IMG/VR virus record: IMGVR_UViG_2547132273_000014
Coordinates: 1 to 6,592 of that record
Strand: one strand, 5' to 3'
Length of the DNA stretch: 6,592 nt
Source of the DNA: a virus
Taxonomy: Duplodnaviria > Heunggongvirae > Uroviricota > Caudoviricetes
Position 1 is the first letter of the stretch. Every line of letters starts with the position of its first letter. Under the pieces are notes generated by a model, which was not told the origin of the DNA, did not search any database, and was given only the letters and a program-made list of their open reading frames with translations. Both the position numbers and the translations under genes were made by a program. This document shows, in pieces, positions 1 to 6,592 of the stretch.

Positions 1-156
1 TTCGGTATCGATATGAACACCGACCACACGCTGGAAGAAGTGGGTAAACAGTTCGACGTTACCCGTGAACGTATCCGTCAGATCGAAGCGAAGGCGCTGC
101 GTAAACTGCGTCACCCGAGCCGTTCTGAAGTACTGCGTAGCTTCCTGGACGATTAA
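1..156 (+). CDS. rpoD: RNA polymerase sigma-70 factor, C-terminal end (5'-partial, truncated by window start)
   Basis: Frame 1 translates to [51 protein letters not shown], which I recognise as the region 4 C-terminus of E. coli sigma-70. TAA stop at 154-156, followed by hairpins and a T-run. Confidence 0.93.
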
Positions 157-1007: not shown

Positions 1008-1266
1008 GTGACAGAGTATAAGCAGGTATAAAAACAACAAGTTACGCAACATCATACCTGTCATGAAACTTTAACTATCCGACATGATAGCTGGTCGATG
1101 ATCACGGATAATCCGTTATGTGGATCCCCATATCGGCATCAGGCCCACCAGCGTGAAGCGTTTTTCATTTTTCGCGGGTATAAAAAATCGATGGGGCTGG
1201 CAGTCCGGAAGACGTCAGGGTACAGAGATTTGACCCGCCCCTCCCTGTGCATGGGCACAATAAGTA

Positions 1267-1292
1267 ACCGAAGGCGGAATTCCGCCCTCGGT
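1267..1292. promoter_or_regulatory. 26-bp near-perfect palindrome (core GGCGGAATTCCGCC)
   Basis: ACCGAAGGCGGAATTCCGCCCTCGGT; 14-bp perfect core at 1273-1286, arms extend to 13 bp with one mismatched pair (1272/1287). No adjacent U-tract on either strand, so it is not an intrinsic terminator. Confidence 0.4.
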
Positions 1293-1326
1293 ACTCACAT
1301 ATGAGAAACGATATTTCTTCCTCTGA

Positions 1327-1397
1327 TACCCAAAATATGGGTATCACAAGTAACCCCCAAAATCTGGGTGTTGCTCTTACTACCCAAACTACGGGTA
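1327..1397. promoter_or_regulatory. Array of three 17-bp palindromic operator-like sites (YACCC-N7-GGGTR) at an exact 27-bp period
   Basis: TACCCAAAATATGGGTA (1327-1343), CCCCCAAAATCTGGGTG (1354-1370), TACCCAAACTACGGGTA (1381-1397). The centre-to-centre spacing is 27 bp twice and the spacers are A/T-rich. Confidence 0.5.
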
Positions 1398-1417
1398 GTT
1401 TCCGTAATTTCATGGTC

Positions 1418-1464
1418 GAGTTGCAGATCTGCAACTCACCCACCAGCCAACGCAATTTTGCGTT
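1418..1464. promoter_or_regulatory. 20-bp perfect palindrome GAGTTGCAGATCTGCAACTC (1418-1437) plus 7-2-7 inverted repeat AACGCAA-TT-TTGCGTT (1449-1464)
   Basis: Both are exact in the sequence and lie 20-65 bp downstream of the stop of the 126-aa minus-strand ORF. Neither is followed by a U-tract. Confidence 0.45.
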
Positions 1465-1482
1465 ATCGGGAATATCAGCAAG

Positions 1483-1863
1483 TTACCGCCGCAGCCGTTC
1501 CGGCTTCTTCCACTGGTAAGTATTTTTCGCGCTCTCCCTCCGTTGTTGAGAACGGCGACGGTATGCCAGCAACTCAAGGACTCTGGTTCGTATGTTGCAC
1601 ATATCCACGCCGTTAAGCTCAATACCATCACGGCGCATCACCTCAGCAACAACACGCGCGTAATTTTCGGCTATCACGCTGTCCGGCTGCGTGGCCTCCT
1701 GTTCGCCAGCCTGCTGGCTGATTCCGGTAATACTGCGGATTATCCCGAGCGCTTCGGTCTCGGTCATGGTCATGGTCATGGCCTCCATAGTGATGGCGGG
1801 TCCTCCTTGTGGGGTGCCCTGCCACGGGGCGGGAGCATCGCGGAAAAAGGCTAGTTTTTGCAT
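1483..1863 (-). CDS. Hypothetical protein downstream of the small terminase gene (start uncertain, likely internal at about 1773-1788)
   Basis: 126-aa ORF in the same orientation as the packaging genes, with a basic C-terminus. The first ATG (1863) lacks an RBS. A GGAGG at 1783-1787 precedes three tandem in-frame ATGs formed by (ATGACC)x3 at 1762-1779; the ATG at 1771-1773 has the best spacing (8 nt). I recognise no protein family. Confidence 0.4.
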   Translation of the reverse strand: MQKLAFFRDAPAPWQGTPQGGPAITMEAMTMTMTETEALGIIRSITGISQQAGEQEATQPDSVIAENYARVVAEVMRRDGIELNGVDMCNIRTRVLELLAYRRRSQQRRESAKNTYQWKKPERLRR

Positions 1864-2024
1864 TTTTATTCGTCATCACCACCAATGCAATATATTGATA
1901 TGACTTGATGTTTTATTTTTCGGTGTCGATTTCGATTGTTTTTTGTTCATCACTGACGCATAACGCCCACCAGCGCAACGCTGAAAGCCAGTCAGTAAAC
2001 TGGCTTCGGTCATTGTGCACTACG

Positions 2025-2567
2025 TTACTTGTCTTTATCCGGCTGAAACTTATCAGGCACATTTCCGGTAGTTTCCATCAGATAATCGGACAGCATTCGC
2101 GGGATGTTTTCATCAAGTTTTGTGCATGCGTTACAGGCTCTGACAACTTCTTTTTTCAGGCCATCCAGCATGACGGGGGTCATCTGTGGGAAGCTCCTTT
2201 GCATAGTAAGCGGGAGGCTGTCCATGATTGATGAAATCTGACTCGCCAGTTTTGAAAGCGCGTACATGCAAAACTCTGTATCAATCACGTCACCGCGATC
2301 GCGCTCGTTTTTAAGTTCCTGCGCCTCCGCCTGTGCTGTCAGTAATCTGATCCTGACTCGTAAGAGTTCATCATCATCAATCTCGCCTTTGTCGTTTGTA
2401 AGCTGGCTAATTGCATTGTTAACCCTATTGTCTATCACGCTGGCAACATCATAAAACGCCTCACGGCCTTTACGTTCAACGGGAGTCACTCCCCACTTGT
2501 CGAATGCTGTAGCACTTACCCGGCAGCTTTGCGCCATGGTTTTTTTGTTCATCAGGTGCGATTTCAT
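2025..2567 (-). CDS. Phage lambda Nu1-like terminase small subunit (TerS)
   Basis: The translation aligns along its whole length with lambda gpNu1 as I recall it, for example RLLTAQAEAQELKNERDRGDVIDTEFCMYALSKLASQISSIMDSLPLTMQRSFPQ against lambda RLTRAQADAQELKNARDSAEVVETAFCTFVLSRIAGEIASILDGLPLSVQRRFPE, and C-terminal DENIPRMLSDYLMETTG against DELIPGLLSEYIEQSG. The N-terminal segment MNKKTMAQSCRVSATAFDKWGV is more divergent. It lies immediately downstream of a cos site, as in lambda. The ORF-track start at 2570 is TTG; ATG starts are at 2567 and 2552. Confidence 0.85.
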   Translation of the reverse strand: MKSHLMNKKTMAQSCRVSATAFDKWGVTPVERKGREAFYDVASVIDNRVNNAISQLTNDKGEIDDDELLRVRIRLLTAQAEAQELKNERDRGDVIDTEFCMYALSKLASQISSIMDSLPLTMQRSFPQMTPVMLDGLKKEVVRACNACTKLDENIPRMLSDYLMETTGNVPDKFQPDKDK

Positions 2568-2574
2568 CAATATC

Positions 2575-2745
2575 CCAACTTGGTCAAGGTTTCAGGTTGG
2601 TGTGTTGGTGTTATCTTTCCCTTTTTATTCATGGAGATAGAGCAAACAACAAAACCACCACCACCACCCTGAAAAAGCTCATAAATAGCGAAAAACCGCG
2701 AGGTCGCCGCCCCGTAGCCTACCGGATCGCCGGAAAGGACCCGCC
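2575..2745 (-). other. Lambda-type cos site: cosQ-like and cosN (12-nt cohesive end GGGCGGCGACCT, 2701-2712) with a divergent cosB-like region toward the TerS start
   Basis: The minus strand reads GGGTCCTTTCCGGCGATCCGGTAGGCTACG-GGGCGGCGACCT-CGCGGTTTTTCGCTATTTATGA, which is almost base-for-base the lambda right-end/cos/left-end sequence as I recall it (lambda: ...GGGTCCTTTCCGGTGATCCGACAGGTTACG GGGCGGCGACCT CGCGGGTTTTCGCTATTTATGA). The 130 bp between cosN and the TerS start do not resemble lambda cosB. Confidence 0.8.
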
Positions 2746-2768
2746 AGCCAGAACGGGCCCTAATTTCA

Positions 2769-3152
2769 TCAACCAATCAACTTATAGCGACCATCCCGTG
2801 CATTGCGACGTACACGCTCAATCTTGAGGCATAGCGCCGCATCTGGCTTTTTTGGGACAGGTACGCGGCAATATTCAGAAGCTCGAGGAATATTGTTTAT
2901 CCAGTCGATCACTTCACTTAAATACCAGGCCTTACGCCCTTCCGTAACCTGTACGCGCTCGGGGAACTCTCCGCGAGCCTCAAGGTTTAGCAATGTGCGA
3001 CGGCTAAGGGTAGTAAGTTCCATCACCTGATTCATATCAACAAGGCGTTCACTTAAACGCATTTTGTCAGCAATAGCCTTTAATTCCTCTACTGCTGGAT
3101 CCGGATACATCATTTCGGCAATTGGCTTAAGGTCATTGTAATGATTCTGCAT
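2769..3152 (-). CDS. 127-aa DNA-binding protein with an AlpA/Vis/excisionase-type winged HTH (MerR superfamily), flanked by N- and C-terminal extensions
   Basis: Central motif MELTTLSRRTLLNLEARGEFPERVQVTEGRKAWYLSEVIDWI fits the AlpA/Vis-family pattern (L-x-x-LSR-x-T-L...G-x-FP-x-x-V...GR-x-A-W...E-V-x-x-WI). Strong RBS AGGGGG 5 nt upstream of the ATG at 3150-3152. The stop at 2769-2771 is about 25 bp before cosQ. Confidence 0.65.
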   Translation of the reverse strand: MQNHYNDLKPIAEMMYPDPAVEELKAIADKMRLSERLVDMNQVMELTTLSRRTLLNLEARGEFPERVQVTEGRKAWYLSEVIDWINNIPRASEYCRVPVPKKPDAALCLKIERVRRNARDGRYKLIG

Positions 3153-3163
3153 TGTATCCCCCT

Positions 3164-3505
3164 TTACACACGAGCCAGCGGCTGAACAGAAATACCTGAG
3201 CCAACAAACGCGGCAACCTTTGCCGACAGTTCTTTTACAGACTCAGGCCAGTTCAGAGCATCAACATTTAAAACACCTGTCTTATAAACCTGTGCCTGTG
3301 TTTTTTTCGCTGTGTCGATTTGTACAGCGGAAACATAAACCGCTTTGCCTGCGCTCGTTCCATCCCATACCACTAGCGCACCAGTTGCATCTTCCTGCAT
3401 CAGTGGCGTAAACGCAGGTATTACCCCTTTATTGGCTGAAAATATCCCCAGCGTAGTAACCAGTGCTTCAGTGCCAGACATGAGTTCAGTGTAATGAGTA
3501 GCCAT
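3164..3505 (-). CDS. Lambda gpD-like head decoration protein
   Basis: 113 aa, against lambda gpD at about 110 aa. Shared motifs with lambda D as I recall it: [27 protein letters not shown] against [42 protein letters not shown] against [25 protein letters not shown] against TAFAGTAISIV. RBS AAGGGGGAG overlaps the upstream stop. Confidence 0.82.
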   Translation of the reverse strand: [113 protein letters not shown]

Positions 3506-3514
3506 TGCTCCCCC

Positions 3515-4561
3515 TTAGCCAATGCGAACGGTAACAAAACGATTGATGCGGGCCGGTATTGGCTGTGGTGCTGAATGTGTCTGCACATATTCAATAGCCG
3601 GATCACCAGGCACAATATAGTTTTTCGGTGCAAGTTCGGCTTTAGTCAGCCCCATCCGAATTAGCTCCGGATCCTGAATACCGCCATAAGCGACAATCCC
3701 CTGAAGAGCCGTATTGCCAAGCACCATCAAATCAGGATCAAGGAAATATTTTTCAGTTCCGTCCTCGTCGGTATAACGCCCGCTGTAAACAACAATCGCA
3801 ACATCGCCCATATACCCTTTAAAACTCACCGAATCACCAAGGTCTTTAAGGGCCGTTTCCAGTTCGGAATTAGAACCTCGACGGGTATCCAGAGCCTCTT
3901 TTACAGCTCTGAATGAGCGGTATTTTTTCCATACATTGCCGCCCATAATAATGATATTAGTGACTCCCTCACTAAATTCTGCGTAGCTCTCAATATCATC
4001 ATTTGGATCAAAAGATCCTTTATCCTTACCTGACCACTCAGCACCGCCAGACTGAGTGATGATATTTTGTGGTTTAATATTCCAGTCCAGTTCATAACGT
4101 TCAATACCATCGCCCTCAATGATATTTTTCCCCGTTGTGATTGCCTGAACAGCAAGCCATTCAATACGTGCACGTATAGCTTTAGCCTGATTTACAATCG
4201 CCTGTTTAACTTTAATATTACGCGCCCCAAAAGCATTGTATTGTTCAGGTGATACACCAGCAGGGCGCACAGCTAACTTATTTGGATCAATGCTGCTTTT
4301 CGGTTTCATATAGCCAGGGCGAATTGTTTTTGATTCGTATCCCTCATCTCGTGAAACTTTACTGCCCACCATAGGAGAGCAAAACGCCGCGATCGGGATA
4401 TTTGGATCGTCGATCGTATCAAGAATAATGTCTCTCGATTCAAACATTACCGAGCGAGTGAAAAACAAACTGGTAAACAACGCATTTAATTTTTTTTGCA
4501 CATCTTCAGCATTAGCCACCTGCACAAGCTGTGTAGGCGAATATAAATCAACCATACTCAT
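3515..4561 (-). CDS. Lambda gpE-like major capsid protein
   Basis: From the internal start MSMVDLYSPTQL... (ATG at 4559-4561; alternative ATG at 4553-4555) the product is 348 aa, against lambda gpE at 341 aa, and aligns throughout with lambda E as I recall it: ITQSGGAEWSGKDKGSFDPNDDIESYA against ITQSGGTEWSKRDKSTYDPTDDIEAYA; LDTRRGSNSELETALKDLGDSVSFKGYMGDVAIVVYSG against LDTRRGSNSELETAVKDLGKAVSYKGMYGDVAIVVYSG; MVLGNT...YGGIQD against MVLGNT...YGCIQD. The ORF-track N-terminal 27 aa (MHLVACIR...) are probably not translated. Confidence 0.88.
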   Translation of the reverse strand: MSMVDLYSPTQLVQVANAEDVQKKLNALFTSLFFTRSVMFESRDIILDTIDDPNIPIAAFCSPMVGSKVSRDEGYESKTIRPGYMKPKSSIDPNKLAVRPAGVSPEQYNAFGARNIKVKQAIVNQAKAIRARIEWLAVQAITTGKNIIEGDGIERYELDWNIKPQNIITQSGGAEWSGKDKGSFDPNDDIESYAEFSEGVTNIIIMGGNVWKKYRSFRAVKEALDTRRGSNSELETALKDLGDSVSFKGYMGDVAIVVYSGRYTDEDGTEKYFLDPDLMVLGNTALQGIVAYGGIQDPELIRMGLTKAELAPKNYIVPGDPAIEYVQTHSAPQPIPARINRFVTVRIG

Positions 4562-4726
4562 CCTCTTTACATTCATTACAAATAATTGTGAATATATTCT
4601 ATTACCGATGTCTGCTATGCGAATACATGCAACCAAGTGCAATGTTGTATAAAATCTGCCGTGACAACTTCAGTGCTGATAATTCGTGTTAATGTATTTA
4701 CTTCCTTTGGTCGGGATTTATGTAGC

Positions 4727-4761
4727 ATGCCGGAAAATCTATTTTCTTCCGGCATTTTTTT
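4727..4761 (+). terminator. Plus-strand-oriented intrinsic-terminator-like hairpin in the SSB/capsid intergenic region
   Basis: 9-bp stem ATGCCGGAA (4727-4735) / TTCCGGCAT (4747-4755), 11-nt loop, then T6 (4756-4761). On the minus strand the run is A-rich before the stem, so it is not a terminator for the flanking minus-strand genes. Confidence 0.4.
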
Positions 4762-4772
4762 ATTTGCAGAAT

Positions 4773-5195
4773 TTAAAACGGTATATTATCGCCGTACGGA
4801 TCATCATTCCCCGACTGTTGTTTTGCCCTGTTCAGTGCGTCAGTAGCCTGGCCCTGTTGACCTTTTTTGCCGCCCGGTCGCGCCGTTCTGGCACTGATTA
4901 CACTGTCTGCGATAACCTGCCAGCCCTGCCGCGTTTCGCCGTTCTGGCCTGTCCACTGGCTTACCTGCATGTTACCCGCCACGCTCACCAGTTCGCCTTT
5001 GTGGTGTTTTGCCAGTGCGTCGGCCTGTCTGCCAAACGCCAGGACGGATAACCACATCGTCGCCGTTCCGTCATCTGCCTGGCTGCACGGAAGTGGGACC
5101 GCCATACTCGCCATCGTCATTTGTGTACCCTTGCTGGTGGTCTTTAACTGCGGGTCAGCCACCAGCCGCCCGTAAGCCGCTATCTGTGCTGTCAT
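4773..5195 (-). CDS. Single-stranded DNA-binding protein (SSB)-like, with acidic C-terminal ...DNIPF tail
   Basis: 140 aa. The OB-fold region resembles E. coli SSB as I recall it: IAAYGRLVADPQLKTT against VILVGNLGQDPEVRYM; MWLSVLAFGRQADALAKHHKGELVSVAGNMQVSQWTGQNGETRQ against [45 protein letters not shown]. A Gly/Gln-rich linker leads to a terminal DDPYGDNIPF, compared with SSB DDDIPF. The start ATG overlaps the stop of the upstream ORF (ATGA). Confidence 0.72.
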   Translation of the reverse strand: MTAQIAAYGRLVADPQLKTTSKGTQMTMASMAVPLPCSQADDGTATMWLSVLAFGRQADALAKHHKGELVSVAGNMQVSQWTGQNGETRQGWQVIADSVISARTARPGGKKGQQGQATDALNRAKQQSGNDDPYGDNIPF

Positions 5196-5437
5196 GCTGT
5201 CTGCTCTCCGGTTTTAACGTTGATGGTTGTCACCTGTTCCGCTTCGGCAATCTCCCGTTCTGTCAGCGTGGCAAAGTTTGCAGCTGCCGTTGTCATGAAT
5301 GAGCTAATCAGTTCGGGATGTGCTTTCGCATATCCTTCCCCGGCGTTGCGGTCGATGATTTTTATCGACACCCTTAACCAGTGTTCCGTCAAATCAAGGG
5401 CGTGCGATTGTGATTTTTTTGTGTGCTTCGCTGTCAT
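5192..5437 (-). CDS. Hypothetical 81-aa protein, translationally coupled to the SSB-like gene
   Basis: ORF MTAKHTKKSQSHALDLTEHWLRVSIKIID... lies between the iteron array and the SSB-like gene in the same orientation, with a 4-bp ATGA stop/start overlap. I recognise no family and the RBS is weak. Confidence 0.45.
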   Translation of the reverse strand: MTAKHTKKSQSHALDLTEHWLRVSIKIIDRNAGEGYAKAHPELISSFMTTAAANFATLTEREIAEAEQVTTINVKTGEQTA

Positions 5438-5482
5438 AGGCTTTATCTCACAGCAGTAAATTAAAATTTTTGCGTTTTAACC

Positions 5483-5712
5483 CTTCACCTGTTCACCTTT
5501 TGATATTTTATCTTTTAATTCATAATGTTAAGGGGTGAACAGTTTCACAAAAACTATTCACCAACTGTTCACCACTGTTCACCCTTGAAGCTCAATAAAC
5601 AATCAAAAAGGTGAACAGTGAATAGTTTGGTGAACAGTTCATAAATAACTGTTCACCCTATAACATACTGATACAAAAGATATTTATGACAGGGTGAACA
5701 GTGGTGAACAGT
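5483..5712. repeat. Iteron array: at least 9 perfect copies of TGTTCACC / GGTGAACA (10-bp unit ACTGTTCACC) in both orientations; P4 ori/crr-like primase-binding repeats
   Basis: Forward TGTTCACC at 5490, 5566, 5576 and 5650. Reverse GGTGAACA at 5534, 5610, 5629, 5693 and 5703. Degenerate copies at 5483-5489, 5555-5562 and 5618-5625. Interspersed A/T-rich tracts (5461-5480, 5498-5530). The array sits directly after the stop of the primase/helicase gene. Confidence 0.8.
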
Positions 5713-5724
5713 TATTCCATAAGT

Positions 5725-6592
5725 TTAATTTTTGCTATCGTCATTAGTGACCGATACACATGATGGCATCCAGTCTTCTGATTCCTCCGTCAGTGTCACG
5801 TTTGAACGCAAACCGTGCTTCGTTTTCCGTTTCATATACTCCCTGCCATATTCCGCCATTGCCCCCGGCATATCTTTACCGAAGCGCGTCAGTGTTACAG
5901 GTTTACCAAACCCATGTGCCCTCATATAAGCCAGATAGGCATGATAGAGATACCTGCGTGGGCTGAATGGCACAATTTCAGCATTACCCACTAACAGGCC
6001 ATCACACATTACCGACGCCATGAGATAGCCGCAGAAGTCCACCAGCGAATCCCCCTCTCGCTTTATCGCCAGTGCTTCTTCAGATTTCTGCTGCTCATAT
6101 AACAGGCGTCTGGCTTCGTCCTGGTCAGCAAACCGTGTAAGCAGATGGCGAATCACTACCGCCAACTCACCTTCTATTTTTTCCGCCAGCATTGGATCGC
6201 GTTCGTTCTCCGGTACAACTTCCGAAAAATTGAATATCACCCGACGACGTGAGATCCCCCCGCTGCGGTCACTGAATGACATGGCGTTATTGTTAACCGC
6301 CAGCACTACTGCCGGAATACGCGTTGAGTAGGGGGCTTTGTGTTTCGGGTCAATTGCCACCTTGTCACCGCCTGTAATGGCCTTAATTCCTGCCCCATCA
6401 CCAGCGTAGCGGGTCATATCCGGCATGATAATCAGCGAAAAGCCAACCACTAACGCGCGTTCCCTTGCATCTTCCAGCGCCTTCATGCTTGCCGATACTG
6501 TGTTGGCCTTACCCGCCAGCATGGTGCAAATCTCCGCCATCACGCTTTTACCACTTCCCCCTGGACCTGTTACCTCAATGAATAACTGCCAG
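5725..6592 (-). CDS. P4-alpha-like primase/helicase, C-terminal helicase portion (5'-partial; continues beyond window end)
   Basis: The open frame runs to the window edge. Its translation contains the Walker A motif in ...WQLFIEVTGPGGSGKSVMAEICTMLAG... and downstream helicase-like motifs (LIIMPDMTRYAGD). It is immediately followed by the TGTTCACC iterons that are the recognition repeats of P4 alpha. The ORF-track start at 6543 is an internal GTG. Confidence 0.8.
   Translation of the reverse strand, partial: WQLFIEVTGPGGSGKSVMAEICTMLAGKANTVSASMKALEDARERALVVGFSLIIMPDMTRYAGDGAGIKAITGGDKVAIDPKHKAPYSTRIPAVVLAVNNNAMSFSDRSGGISRRRVIFNFSEVVPENERDPMLAEKIEGELAVVIRHLLTRFADQDEARRLLYEQQKSEEALAIKREGDSLVDFCGYLMASVMCDGLLVGNAEIVPFSPRRYLYHAYLAYMRAHGFGKPVTLTRFGKDMPGAMAEYGREYMKRKTKHGLRSNVTLTEESEDWMPSCVSVTNDDSKN

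Follow-up and report, generated by a model that had tools for sequence, protein, structure and literature searches.

Genomic context of the terS-encoding island

The window, by which we mean the whole stretch of 6,592 nucleotides that was analyzed, holds on its left side the end of rpoD, followed by mug and a tRNA with the anticodon CAT (866-941). One end of a satellite island occupies it from ~1112 onward, with all island genes on the minus strand. In order of transcription, these encode the C-terminal part of a primase (5725-6543), an 81-amino-acid open reading frame (ORF), an SSB (4773-5195), a capsid protein similar to lambda E (3515-4642), a decoration protein similar to lambda D (3164-3505), an AlpA-family regulator (2769-3152) and, after a 201-bp gap, a small terminase of 180 amino acids (terS; 2025-2567), with a 126-amino-acid ORF downstream of terS as the last gene. 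A further ORF of 69 amino acids (2567-2776, minus strand) spans cos and was judged spurious because it passes through both cosQ and cosN. An NCBIfam search with five of the island proteins returned zero matches. The remainder of the element can be seen in strain XD35, where an island 98% identical to that in the window comprises an integrase, regulators and a primase in addition to the full gene order, in ~10 kb in total. This gene set matches the published core of Gram-negative phage-inducible chromosomal islands (PICIs) (PMC6092414; de Sousa and Rocha preprint). Judged by its gene content (integrase, primase, alpA, capsid homologue and terS, within ~10 kb), the element is a terS-encoding Gram-negative PICI of ~10 kb. 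Its cos-terS module was matched in 941 of 5,426 complete E. coli genomes, including O157:H7, and the match covered at least 80% of the query in 762 of the 941.

The published takeover of lambda-like packaging by Gram-negative PICIs concerns islands of the Rpp type (PMC6739421, PMC9026076). The searchable literature names terS-encoding islands but gives no account of their cos sites, and it contains no binding, nicking or packaging data for islands of the terS type. One relative island interrupts the portal gene of a prophage with a Monarch-type TerS, and there the TerS-cosB pair of the island is a diverged copy of that of its helper. This case is circumstantial evidence for induction, packaging and transfer by a helper phage. 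Separately, six genome identifiers were common to the IMG/VR locus sets of islands and Monarch-type prophages; there was no baseline rate for such an overlap, and it was not used.

Organization of the cos site

Positions in cos are given below as bp, calculated as 2713 minus the window coordinate, so that bp 1 is window position 2712, the first base of the cohesive end. The cosN cohesive end GGGCGGCGACCT (2701-2712, minus strand) is identical to that of lambda. A cosQ-like heptamer, GGGTCCT (2736-2742, minus strand), lies 23 nt upstream of bp 1; the heptamer and its spacing match those of lambda. Its GGGTCC block was invariant in an alignment of islands and prophage. Matches to the DNA of lambda-like phages span window positions 2744 to 2667 (cosQ through bp 46) at 88-91% identity, and include the conserved cosN-proximal flank CTCGCGGTTTTTCGCTATTTA (2680-2700, bp 13-33, minus strand) that is common to lambda, 21 and N15-type phages. 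The only terminator-like match in the cos region was cosN itself. Counted from cosN, the start codon of terS (2567) lies at bp 146. For the intervening interval, 2568-2700, we think it likely that it is the cosB of a terS-encoding PICI, derived from the complex cosB of N15/Monarch-type lambdoid phages; the grounds are comparative, and are set out in the following sections.

Two simple repeats within this interval had been put forward in a first-pass annotation as candidate sites of small terminase recognition, and both are present on the minus strand where it placed them. The GGT tract, recorded there as GGTGGTGGTGGTGG at 2655-2668, was extended by Tandem Repeats Finder to five full units (2654-2668, bp 45-59), and cosN lies 33 bp upstream of it. 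Such a tract is unexpected by chance, as shuffled sequence would yield 0.06 matches to it at up to two mismatches. The CACCAAC repeat consists of two copies, which we call copy A (cosN proximal; 2604-2610, bp 103-109) and copy B (terS proximal; 2596-2602, bp 111-117), and was recovered as two perfect 8-bp units at 2596-2611. Its count is near chance: three occurrences in the window compared to 1.13 expected, with three or more in 25 of 200 shuffles. R-like motifs were found nowhere else in the 6.6-kb window, and a search inside terS for an N15-style rR2 gave no R-like motif at up to two mismatches.

Constraint on cosB among related islands

Relatives were drawn from 80 IMG/VR loci with a close TerS, to which more distant loci were added from assemblies and IMG/VR; a scan of species-representative genomes with a single TerS protein had given no confirmed relative, and these sources were used instead. 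Nucleotide diversity was calculated among 51 unique E. coli island sequences and can be read against a value of 0.28 at the four-fold degenerate sites of terS. The cosN-proximal flank (bp 13-33) has a diversity of 0.058, after which it rises to 0.21 over bp 34-49, a segment that includes the first two GGT units. It then falls to 0.023 over bp 50-59 and 0.084 over bp 60-69, rises to 0.15 in the spacer (bp 70-106) and 0.26 in copy A, falls again to 0.030 over bp 107-121, with copy B at 0, and returns to 0.21 over bp 122-145. Copy A and the first two GGT units thus evolve at close to the neutral rate. In nearly all E. coli-type islands, cosN and the ATG are 145 bp apart, the exceptions being two loci, one of which lacks a single GGT unit while the other measures 174 bp.

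Conservation of the repeat blocks in related islands, which had been suggested as a check on the first-pass annotation, therefore holds for two cores but not for the whole tract or the repeat pair. Within the GGT tract, only bp 50-59 is constrained, and bp 46-49 vary among relatives. Its candidacy as a TerS site carries over to the three 3′ units, and not to the first two (2664-2668), which are unconstrained. The constrained element comprises TGGTGGTGGT (bp 50-59) and TTTTGTTGTT, running on to 2644, and the resulting block, TGGTGGTGGTTTTGTTGTTT (2644-2663, bp 50-69, minus strand), is our candidate for the main site of the island TerS. As for CACCAAC, the proposed pairing of direct repeats did not survive the comparison, since copy A was found in 6 of 49 unique island sequences, confined to a few lineages and varying at about the neutral rate. 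Copy B, in contrast, is invariant and holds up as a conserved candidate, as part of a 15-bp constrained block, AACACACCAACCTGA (2592-2606, bp 107-121, minus strand; reverse complement ...GGTTGGTGTGT), that is homologous to R2 and is proposed here as an inverted TerS site. The window reads ACACACCAACC at bp 108-118, with AAYACACCAACCTGA as the constrained element. A 13-nt inverted repeat, complementary at 12 of 13 positions, pairs 2662-2674 with 2590-2602, so that the R3 and R2 regions are partly inverted copies of each other. The island R3 core GGTGGTGGT and the reverse complement of the island R2, GGTTGGTGT, are alike at only 7 of 9 positions, which counts against the explanation that we propose below.

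The two cores are also found outside E. coli. In Enterobacter and related genera, islands with a TerS of 57% identity sit in the capsid gene of prophages and have TGGTGGTGGT at bp 50-59 in most cases and AGGTGGTGGT in some. Their flanks differ, but (T/A)GGTGGTGGTGTTGTT is retained at bp 50-65 and, in most of them, ATACACCCAC(C/T)TG at bp 108-120.

The two cores lie on either side of a spacer (2607-2643, bp 70-106, minus strand) at the position of I1, with conserved patches TATCT and ATGAAT. The first-pass annotation had suggested that this segment could accommodate a bending protein. Its A+T content is 64%, but the consensus for IHF is absent: a search of 2607-2654 with WATCAANNNNTTR gave no match at up to two mismatches, and the best match, at three mismatches, was at the level of shuffled sequence. 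A core with one mismatch to the IHF consensus is kept at the I1 position in all 27 unique phage cosB sequences, whereas 38 of the 49 unique island sequences do no better than three mismatches, as in shuffled sequence. Most islands have thus lost the IHF consensus that phages keep, and this loss counts against our explanation, in which R3 and R2 would have to be brought together without it. Between the R2-equivalent block and terS, AAGTTGGGATAT (2570-2581, minus strand) is a possible remnant of R1, on weak evidence: it overlaps the ribosome-binding region of terS, the position reads AAGTTGGTGTAT in some relatives, and the region is variable.

Relationship to phage cosB systems

In N15, R3 comprises bp 48-59 (GAGGTT GTTGTT), and scrambling it reduces phage yield 7-fold (bp 48-53) or 100-fold (bp 54-59) (PMC4669245). 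Prophages of the "Monarch" type combine the N15 recognition helix with a complex cosB of the order R3-I1-R2-R1 (PMC4669245), and in lambda R3 spans bp 50-65, with contacts seen by NMR at bp 55-63 (PMC9026076). In the phage 21 record, converted with bp 1 at record position 167, R3 is annotated at bp 50-65 and R2 at bp 107-122, with I1 between them at bp 72-86 and R1 further on at bp 150-165.

Monarch-type prophages are represented here by that of E. coli KC-Dl-1 (L003), in which terS is followed by TerL and portal genes; from cosQ to bp 120, its alignment with the window needs no gaps. L003 has three R copies, namely, a direct GGTTGTTGTTT at bp 51-61, an inverted ATACAACAACC at bp 108-118 and a second direct copy, GGTTGTTGTAT, near bp 188, with GGTTGTTGT as the element common to all three. 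The window reads GGTGGTGGTTT at bp 51-61, and its R3-equivalent block is in register with both the N15 R3 (GAGGTTGTTGTT, bp 48-59) and the L003 copy at bp 51-61. The constrained bp 50-69 thus falls where R3 is expected (bp ~50-65 from the left end), in register with N15, Monarch-type phages and 21, and the GGT tract is the homologue of R3. Likewise, the invariant block at bp 107-121 lies ~55 bp downstream of R3 in the inverted orientation expected of R2 and aligns with ATACAACAACC of Monarch-type phages, which places the terS-proximal CACCAAC within an R2 homologue.

The island therefore shares with Monarch-type phages the cosQ-cosN arrangement, R3 at bp 51-61, an inverted R2 in register at bp 108-118 and a TerS that is 47% identical and nearly the same in helix and wing. 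It differs in R sequence, with GGTGGTGGT (R3) and GGTTGGTGT (R2, reverse complement) in place of the phages' GGTTGTTGT; in lacking an IHF consensus and having at most a remnant of R1, where the phages have a one-mismatch IHF site and a clear R1; and in its terS, which has no TerL after it and starts 145 bp from cosN (145-151 bp across islands), whereas the phage terS starts 209-244 bp from cosN and is followed by TerL. The simple cosB of N15 resembles that of the island in the position and sequence family of R3 and in the family of its TerS. N15, however, relies on a single critical R3 and a remote inverted rR2 inside gene 1, and its terS starts at bp 89 with no R2 between, while the island has an R2-like block upstream of terS and no rR2-like element inside it; the cohesive ends of the two also differ, at bp 9 and 12. 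With lambda and 21 (R3-I1-R2-R1), the island has in common the layout and its coordinates, the inverted R2 and a Nu1-family TerS. The R sequences are unrelated (CGTTTCC in lambda and CATGTCGG-like in 21), the DNA-binding domain of the lambda and 21 TerS has insertions that the island TerS lacks, and the IHF site is absent from the island. The description of the repeats as unlike lambda R1-R3 is thus apt for their sequence but not for their positions, orientation and spacing, which follow the R3-spacer-R2 layout and find their relatives in N15 and Monarch-type phages. As far as homology can establish it, the satellite carries a variant of a known design, the N15/Monarch-type complex cosB, and not a new kind of site.

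The island small terminase and its covariation with cosB

The island TerS matches Pfam family PF07471 (Phage_Nu1) with an E value of 9.8e-23, above the curated cutoff. It is 47% identical to N15 gp1, its best match in the phage database, 47% identical to the L003 TerS and 37% identical to lambda Nu1, with similarity to lambda Nu1 and N15 gp1 spanning about 98% of its length. Its SATAFDKW motif (HTH) aligns on lambda helix 2, and helix and wing are nearly the same as in the TerS of N15 and L003. The coiled-coil region is well conserved, and the C-terminal tail, LDENIPRMLSDYL, resembles LDE(L/R)IPGLL(S/N)(E/D)YI of lambda and N15. By these similarities, the protein is a full-length small terminase of the Nu1 family. 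An AF2 model gave the N terminus as strand-helix-helix-wing-helix at low confidence (pLDDT ~73 there and 65 overall) and offers soft support only. The best Foldseek matches of this model were MerR-type winged helix domains, which were weak (E ~0.1), and no Nu1 or Rpp protein was recovered when PDB sequences were searched by phmmer with the island TerS.

Recognition helix and R3 change together between islands and phages. Across 100 island loci, none of them with a TerL gene downstream, the helix always reads (A/V/I)TAFDKW, and the R3 core reads GGTGGTGGT in all but three, L067, L069 and L071, which have degenerate variants of it. The phage loci (69 with cos located, of 75 in all) have VQAFDKW with a GTTGTTGT core, extended to GGTTGTTGT in most, and nearly all have an ORF of TerL length (~645-665 amino acids) downstream. 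The differences between islands and phages fall at bp 54 and 57 in R3, at bp 113 in R2 and at the first helix residues (AT versus VQ). The recombinant island protein P0099, a TerS in which a phage-21-like N-terminal half is fused to the C-terminal half of the island type, goes with a 21-like cosB without the GGT tract. The first-pass annotation is supported in its view of the interval as a cosB; the GGT tract occupies exactly the position of R3 in lambda, 21 and N15, and its three 3′ units covary with the TerS recognition helix. This contrast is one between two clades and so amounts to one or two evolutionary events. Moreover, bp 56 and 59, marked as the most critical by the work of Feiss, are T in islands and phages alike, which makes a shift in specificity uncertain, nor do the two groups differ at the helix residues that match the discriminating positions 20 and 24 of lambda.

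Proposed mechanism and alternative explanations

From the positions, homology, constraint and covariation described above, we infer a scheme of binding, recruitment, nicking and altered specificity in which the small terminase encoded by the island itself most likely docks on part of each repeat. In this scheme, the predicted winged HTH domains of the island TerS would bind the R3-equivalent block (bp 50-69, consisting of the 3′ part of the GGT tract and TTTTGTTGTT) as well as the inverted R2-equivalent block (bp 107-121) with its terS-proximal CACCAAC. The C-terminal tail would recruit the large terminase of the helper phage, which could then nick the lambda-identical cosN and package island concatemers. 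Three T-to-G changes, two in R3 (bp 54 and 57) and one in R2 (bp 113), together with the Q-to-T change at the start of the helix, have probably moved packaging specificity away from that of the helper.

The site could instead be a copy of a helper cos that is read by the helper's own N15/Monarch-type TerS, with the G substitutions as tolerated drift and the island TerS acting elsewhere or just interfering with the helper. Such a reading would account for the gapless homology to the Monarch-type prophage cos (83% over 150 bp) and the unchanged bp 56 and 59, and it gains from two observations on other systems, in that N15-specific terminase is lax enough for lambda DNA to be packaged by it (PMC4669245) and Rpp-type islands carry complete phage-type cos2 sites. 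We nevertheless regard it as rather unlikely, as G54 and G57 are found in nearly all 100 island loci, spanning several genera and TerS identities of 57-100%, and in 0 of the 69 phage loci in which cos was found. Diversity at the island G positions is 12-fold below the synonymous value, which argues for selection for the island form and against drift; a full-length terS has been retained directly downstream; and cosB swaps together with the DNA-binding domain. The reader of the sites is also at issue if the island TerS behaves like Rpp, so that mixed oligomers with the helper TerS read both blocks and the helper cos is starved. Rpp is itself the precedent (PMC6739421), in at least one embedded case the helper has a TerS that is related to the island TerS at 47% identity, and the coiled-coil region of the island protein is well conserved. 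Rpp, however, lacks the 30-40 C-terminal residues that bind TerL, whence its proposed need for a helper TerS (PMC9026076), while the island TerS has this tail and is without sequence similarity to Rpp. We therefore find the Rpp-like mode improbable, and it would alter the reader of the sites, not their identity.

Two further readings deny the blocks a role in packaging altogether. Their place just ahead of terS, with an AlpA-family gene on their upstream side, and the overlap of bp 132-145 with the ribosome-binding region would suit signals for terS expression, be it a promoter, a leader or translation element, or an operator at which the AlpA-like regulator acts. We found no sigma-70-like promoter in 2450-2850, the homologous blocks of phages keep a fixed distance from cosN and a variable one (209-244 bp) from the terS start, and the N15 homologue was defined by a packaging phenotype, all of which make an expression role very unlikely. 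It is more improbable still, to the point that we give it scarcely any credence, that the repeats have no role, whether as simple sequence that evolves neutrally or as matches due to chance. The CACCAAC count, which is not above chance, the near-synonymous rate of change in the first two GGT units and copy A, and the loss of a GGT unit in one locus are what neutrality would predict, but it leaves unexplained the near invariance of the cores (bp 50-59 and bp 110-122) where synonymous diversity is 0.28, the fixed length in nearly all loci and the conservation in register, both among genera and with N15 R3, a site defined by mutation.

If the proposed shift in specificity is real, terS-type islands would represent a second, independent route to cos packaging that is private to the satellite, and a natural system in which the DNA specificity of a Nu1-family terminase has changed. 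The comparison yields a base-resolved map of cosB for a common class of islands, with two constrained blocks, two unconstrained parts of repeats and a lost IHF site, and it singles out two candidate pairs for specificity, namely, G or T at bp 54 and 57 and T or Q in the helix.

Comparison with Rpp-type islands and SaPIs

Rpp-type PICIs of the EcCICFT073 family carry a cos1 site in which R3-PICI, at bp 48-65, is read by an Rpp-TerS complex (PMC6739421, PMC9026076). Like the terS island, they have cosQ and cosN with a satellite-specific cosB near cosN, and the same gene order of E-like capsid gene, D-like decoration gene, AlpA-like or hypothetical gene, cos and adaptor gene; some of them also share the phoQ-side insertion site. 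The adaptors differ, in that Rpp has 135-153 amino acids and no TerL-binding tail, whereas the island TerS has 180 and carries the tail. That the island TerS is itself an Rpp was ruled out by BLASTP against the Rpp of an Rpp-type island (L004; E = 1.3). The cosB of Rpp-type islands has just one site, GACACCACCACCACTTGA, and rpp begins at bp 102, in agreement with the R3-PICI proposal of Murialdo and Feiss. At bp 48-65, the window reads GGTGGTGGTGGTTTTGTT compared to AGGTGACACCACCACCAC in Rpp-type islands and so does not carry R3-PICI.

Read on the opposite strand, the (ACC)3 core of the Rpp-type site, ACCACCACC (bp 55-63), becomes the (GGT)3 that the terS island has at bp 51-59. An origin of the Rpp-type R3 from a terS-type R2 by deletion, which might have accounted for this mirror relationship, found no support, as local alignments were no better than those of shuffles (P mostly 0.07-0.9) and were inconsistent between pairs. 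It is conceivable, though we think it unlikely, that enterobacterial satellites share a private packaging code of GGT/ACC triplets, served by two unrelated adaptors in opposite orientations and unused by helpers. Under such a code, (GGT)3 would be read by a diverged paralogue of the helper TerS and (ACC)3 by Rpp-TerS, and satellites of both kinds could mobilize each other's DNA to the exclusion of the helper genome; the island TerS might, in addition, poison the helper TerS through mixed oligomers.

The strategy proposed here for the terS island has a parallel in the SaPIs, where a small terminase encoded by the satellite likewise steers the helper's large terminase to satellite DNA (PMC6092414). 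The SaPIs in question are of the pac type, with headful packaging and a TerS of an unrelated family, whereas the island in the window has a cos site with lambda-type ends.

Variation at cos among related islands

The cohesive end varies at cos bp 6-12 (corresponding to 2701-2707 in the window, with bp 1 the first cohesive-end base) between islands that are otherwise near-identical, giving a diversity of 0.125 over the 12-nt cohesive end. The variants GGGCGGCGACCT, GGGCGTCAGGCG, GGGCGGCAGACG, GGGCGGAAGGCG and GGGCGGCTGACG were found in L005, L015, L022, L049, L050 and other relative loci, with conservation retained in cosB and in the cosN flanks. Within cosB, a degraded or shortened GGT tract (cos bp 45-59) is rare among the islands and occurs in three loci (L067, L069, L071), where the tract reads GGGGGGGGGGGTGGG or GGGGGGGGTGGTGG, or has one unit deleted. 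Errors in sequencing a G-rich run may account for these tracts, or they may represent natural loss-of-function alleles.

In islands that carry the adaptor gene rpp instead of a small terminase gene (L004 3700-3760; L193-L216), the core of cos1 is (ACC)3 at bp 55-63, the published R3-PICI core. In the islands that encode their own TerS, the core is (GGT)3 at bp 51-59, of which (ACC)3 is the reverse complement. A test of a deletion origin for the Rpp-type R3 gave a negative result. Rpp-type islands also carry an inverted second cos (L004 2990-3240; L193-L212, downstream of rpp); its complex cosB is of phage type and complete, and comes in two flavors. The first is of the type found in the N15-like Monarch phages and consists of GGTTGTTGT, an IHF-like site, ACAACAACC and a further GGTTGTTGT, while the other is built from CATGTCCGG / CCGGACATG repeats. 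Through the second cos, helper TerS of different types may be able to package the island directly.

Genomic location and terS recombination

Window 1112-6592 and positions 8189-13675 of L001, the island of strain XD35, are copies of the same island, with 97.9% identity over 5.5 kb. The XD35 copy lies between cspD/yljB and clpS, and the window copy adjoins rpoD-mug-tRNA(CAT), with the island end near 1112, ~170 bp beyond the tRNA, and its integrase outside the window. At the phoQ site, the island of L090-L092 encodes a recombinant TerS of 194 aa (gene at 4001-4585 in L090), in which a phage-21-like N-terminal half is joined to a C-terminal half nearly identical to the window protein; the cosB beside it is 21-like.

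Other relatives are embedded in the late genes of lambdoid prophages (L025 4137-4910 and L104, both on contig IMGVR_UViG_3300028982_000003; L093-L098 6040-6900), in agreement with published helper-embedded PICIs. One relative sits within a portal gene, in a prophage that encodes a Monarch-type TerS, and others sit within capsid gene E.

Minor open reading frames

A 69-aa ORF on the minus strand (window 2567-2776) crosses cosQ, cosN and the GGT tract, which it would translate as GGGGG, and is most likely spurious. Downstream of terS, a 126-aa ORF on the minus strand (window 1483-1863) had no match in Pfam or NCBIfam; related islands have a small hypothetical gene annotated at the same position.
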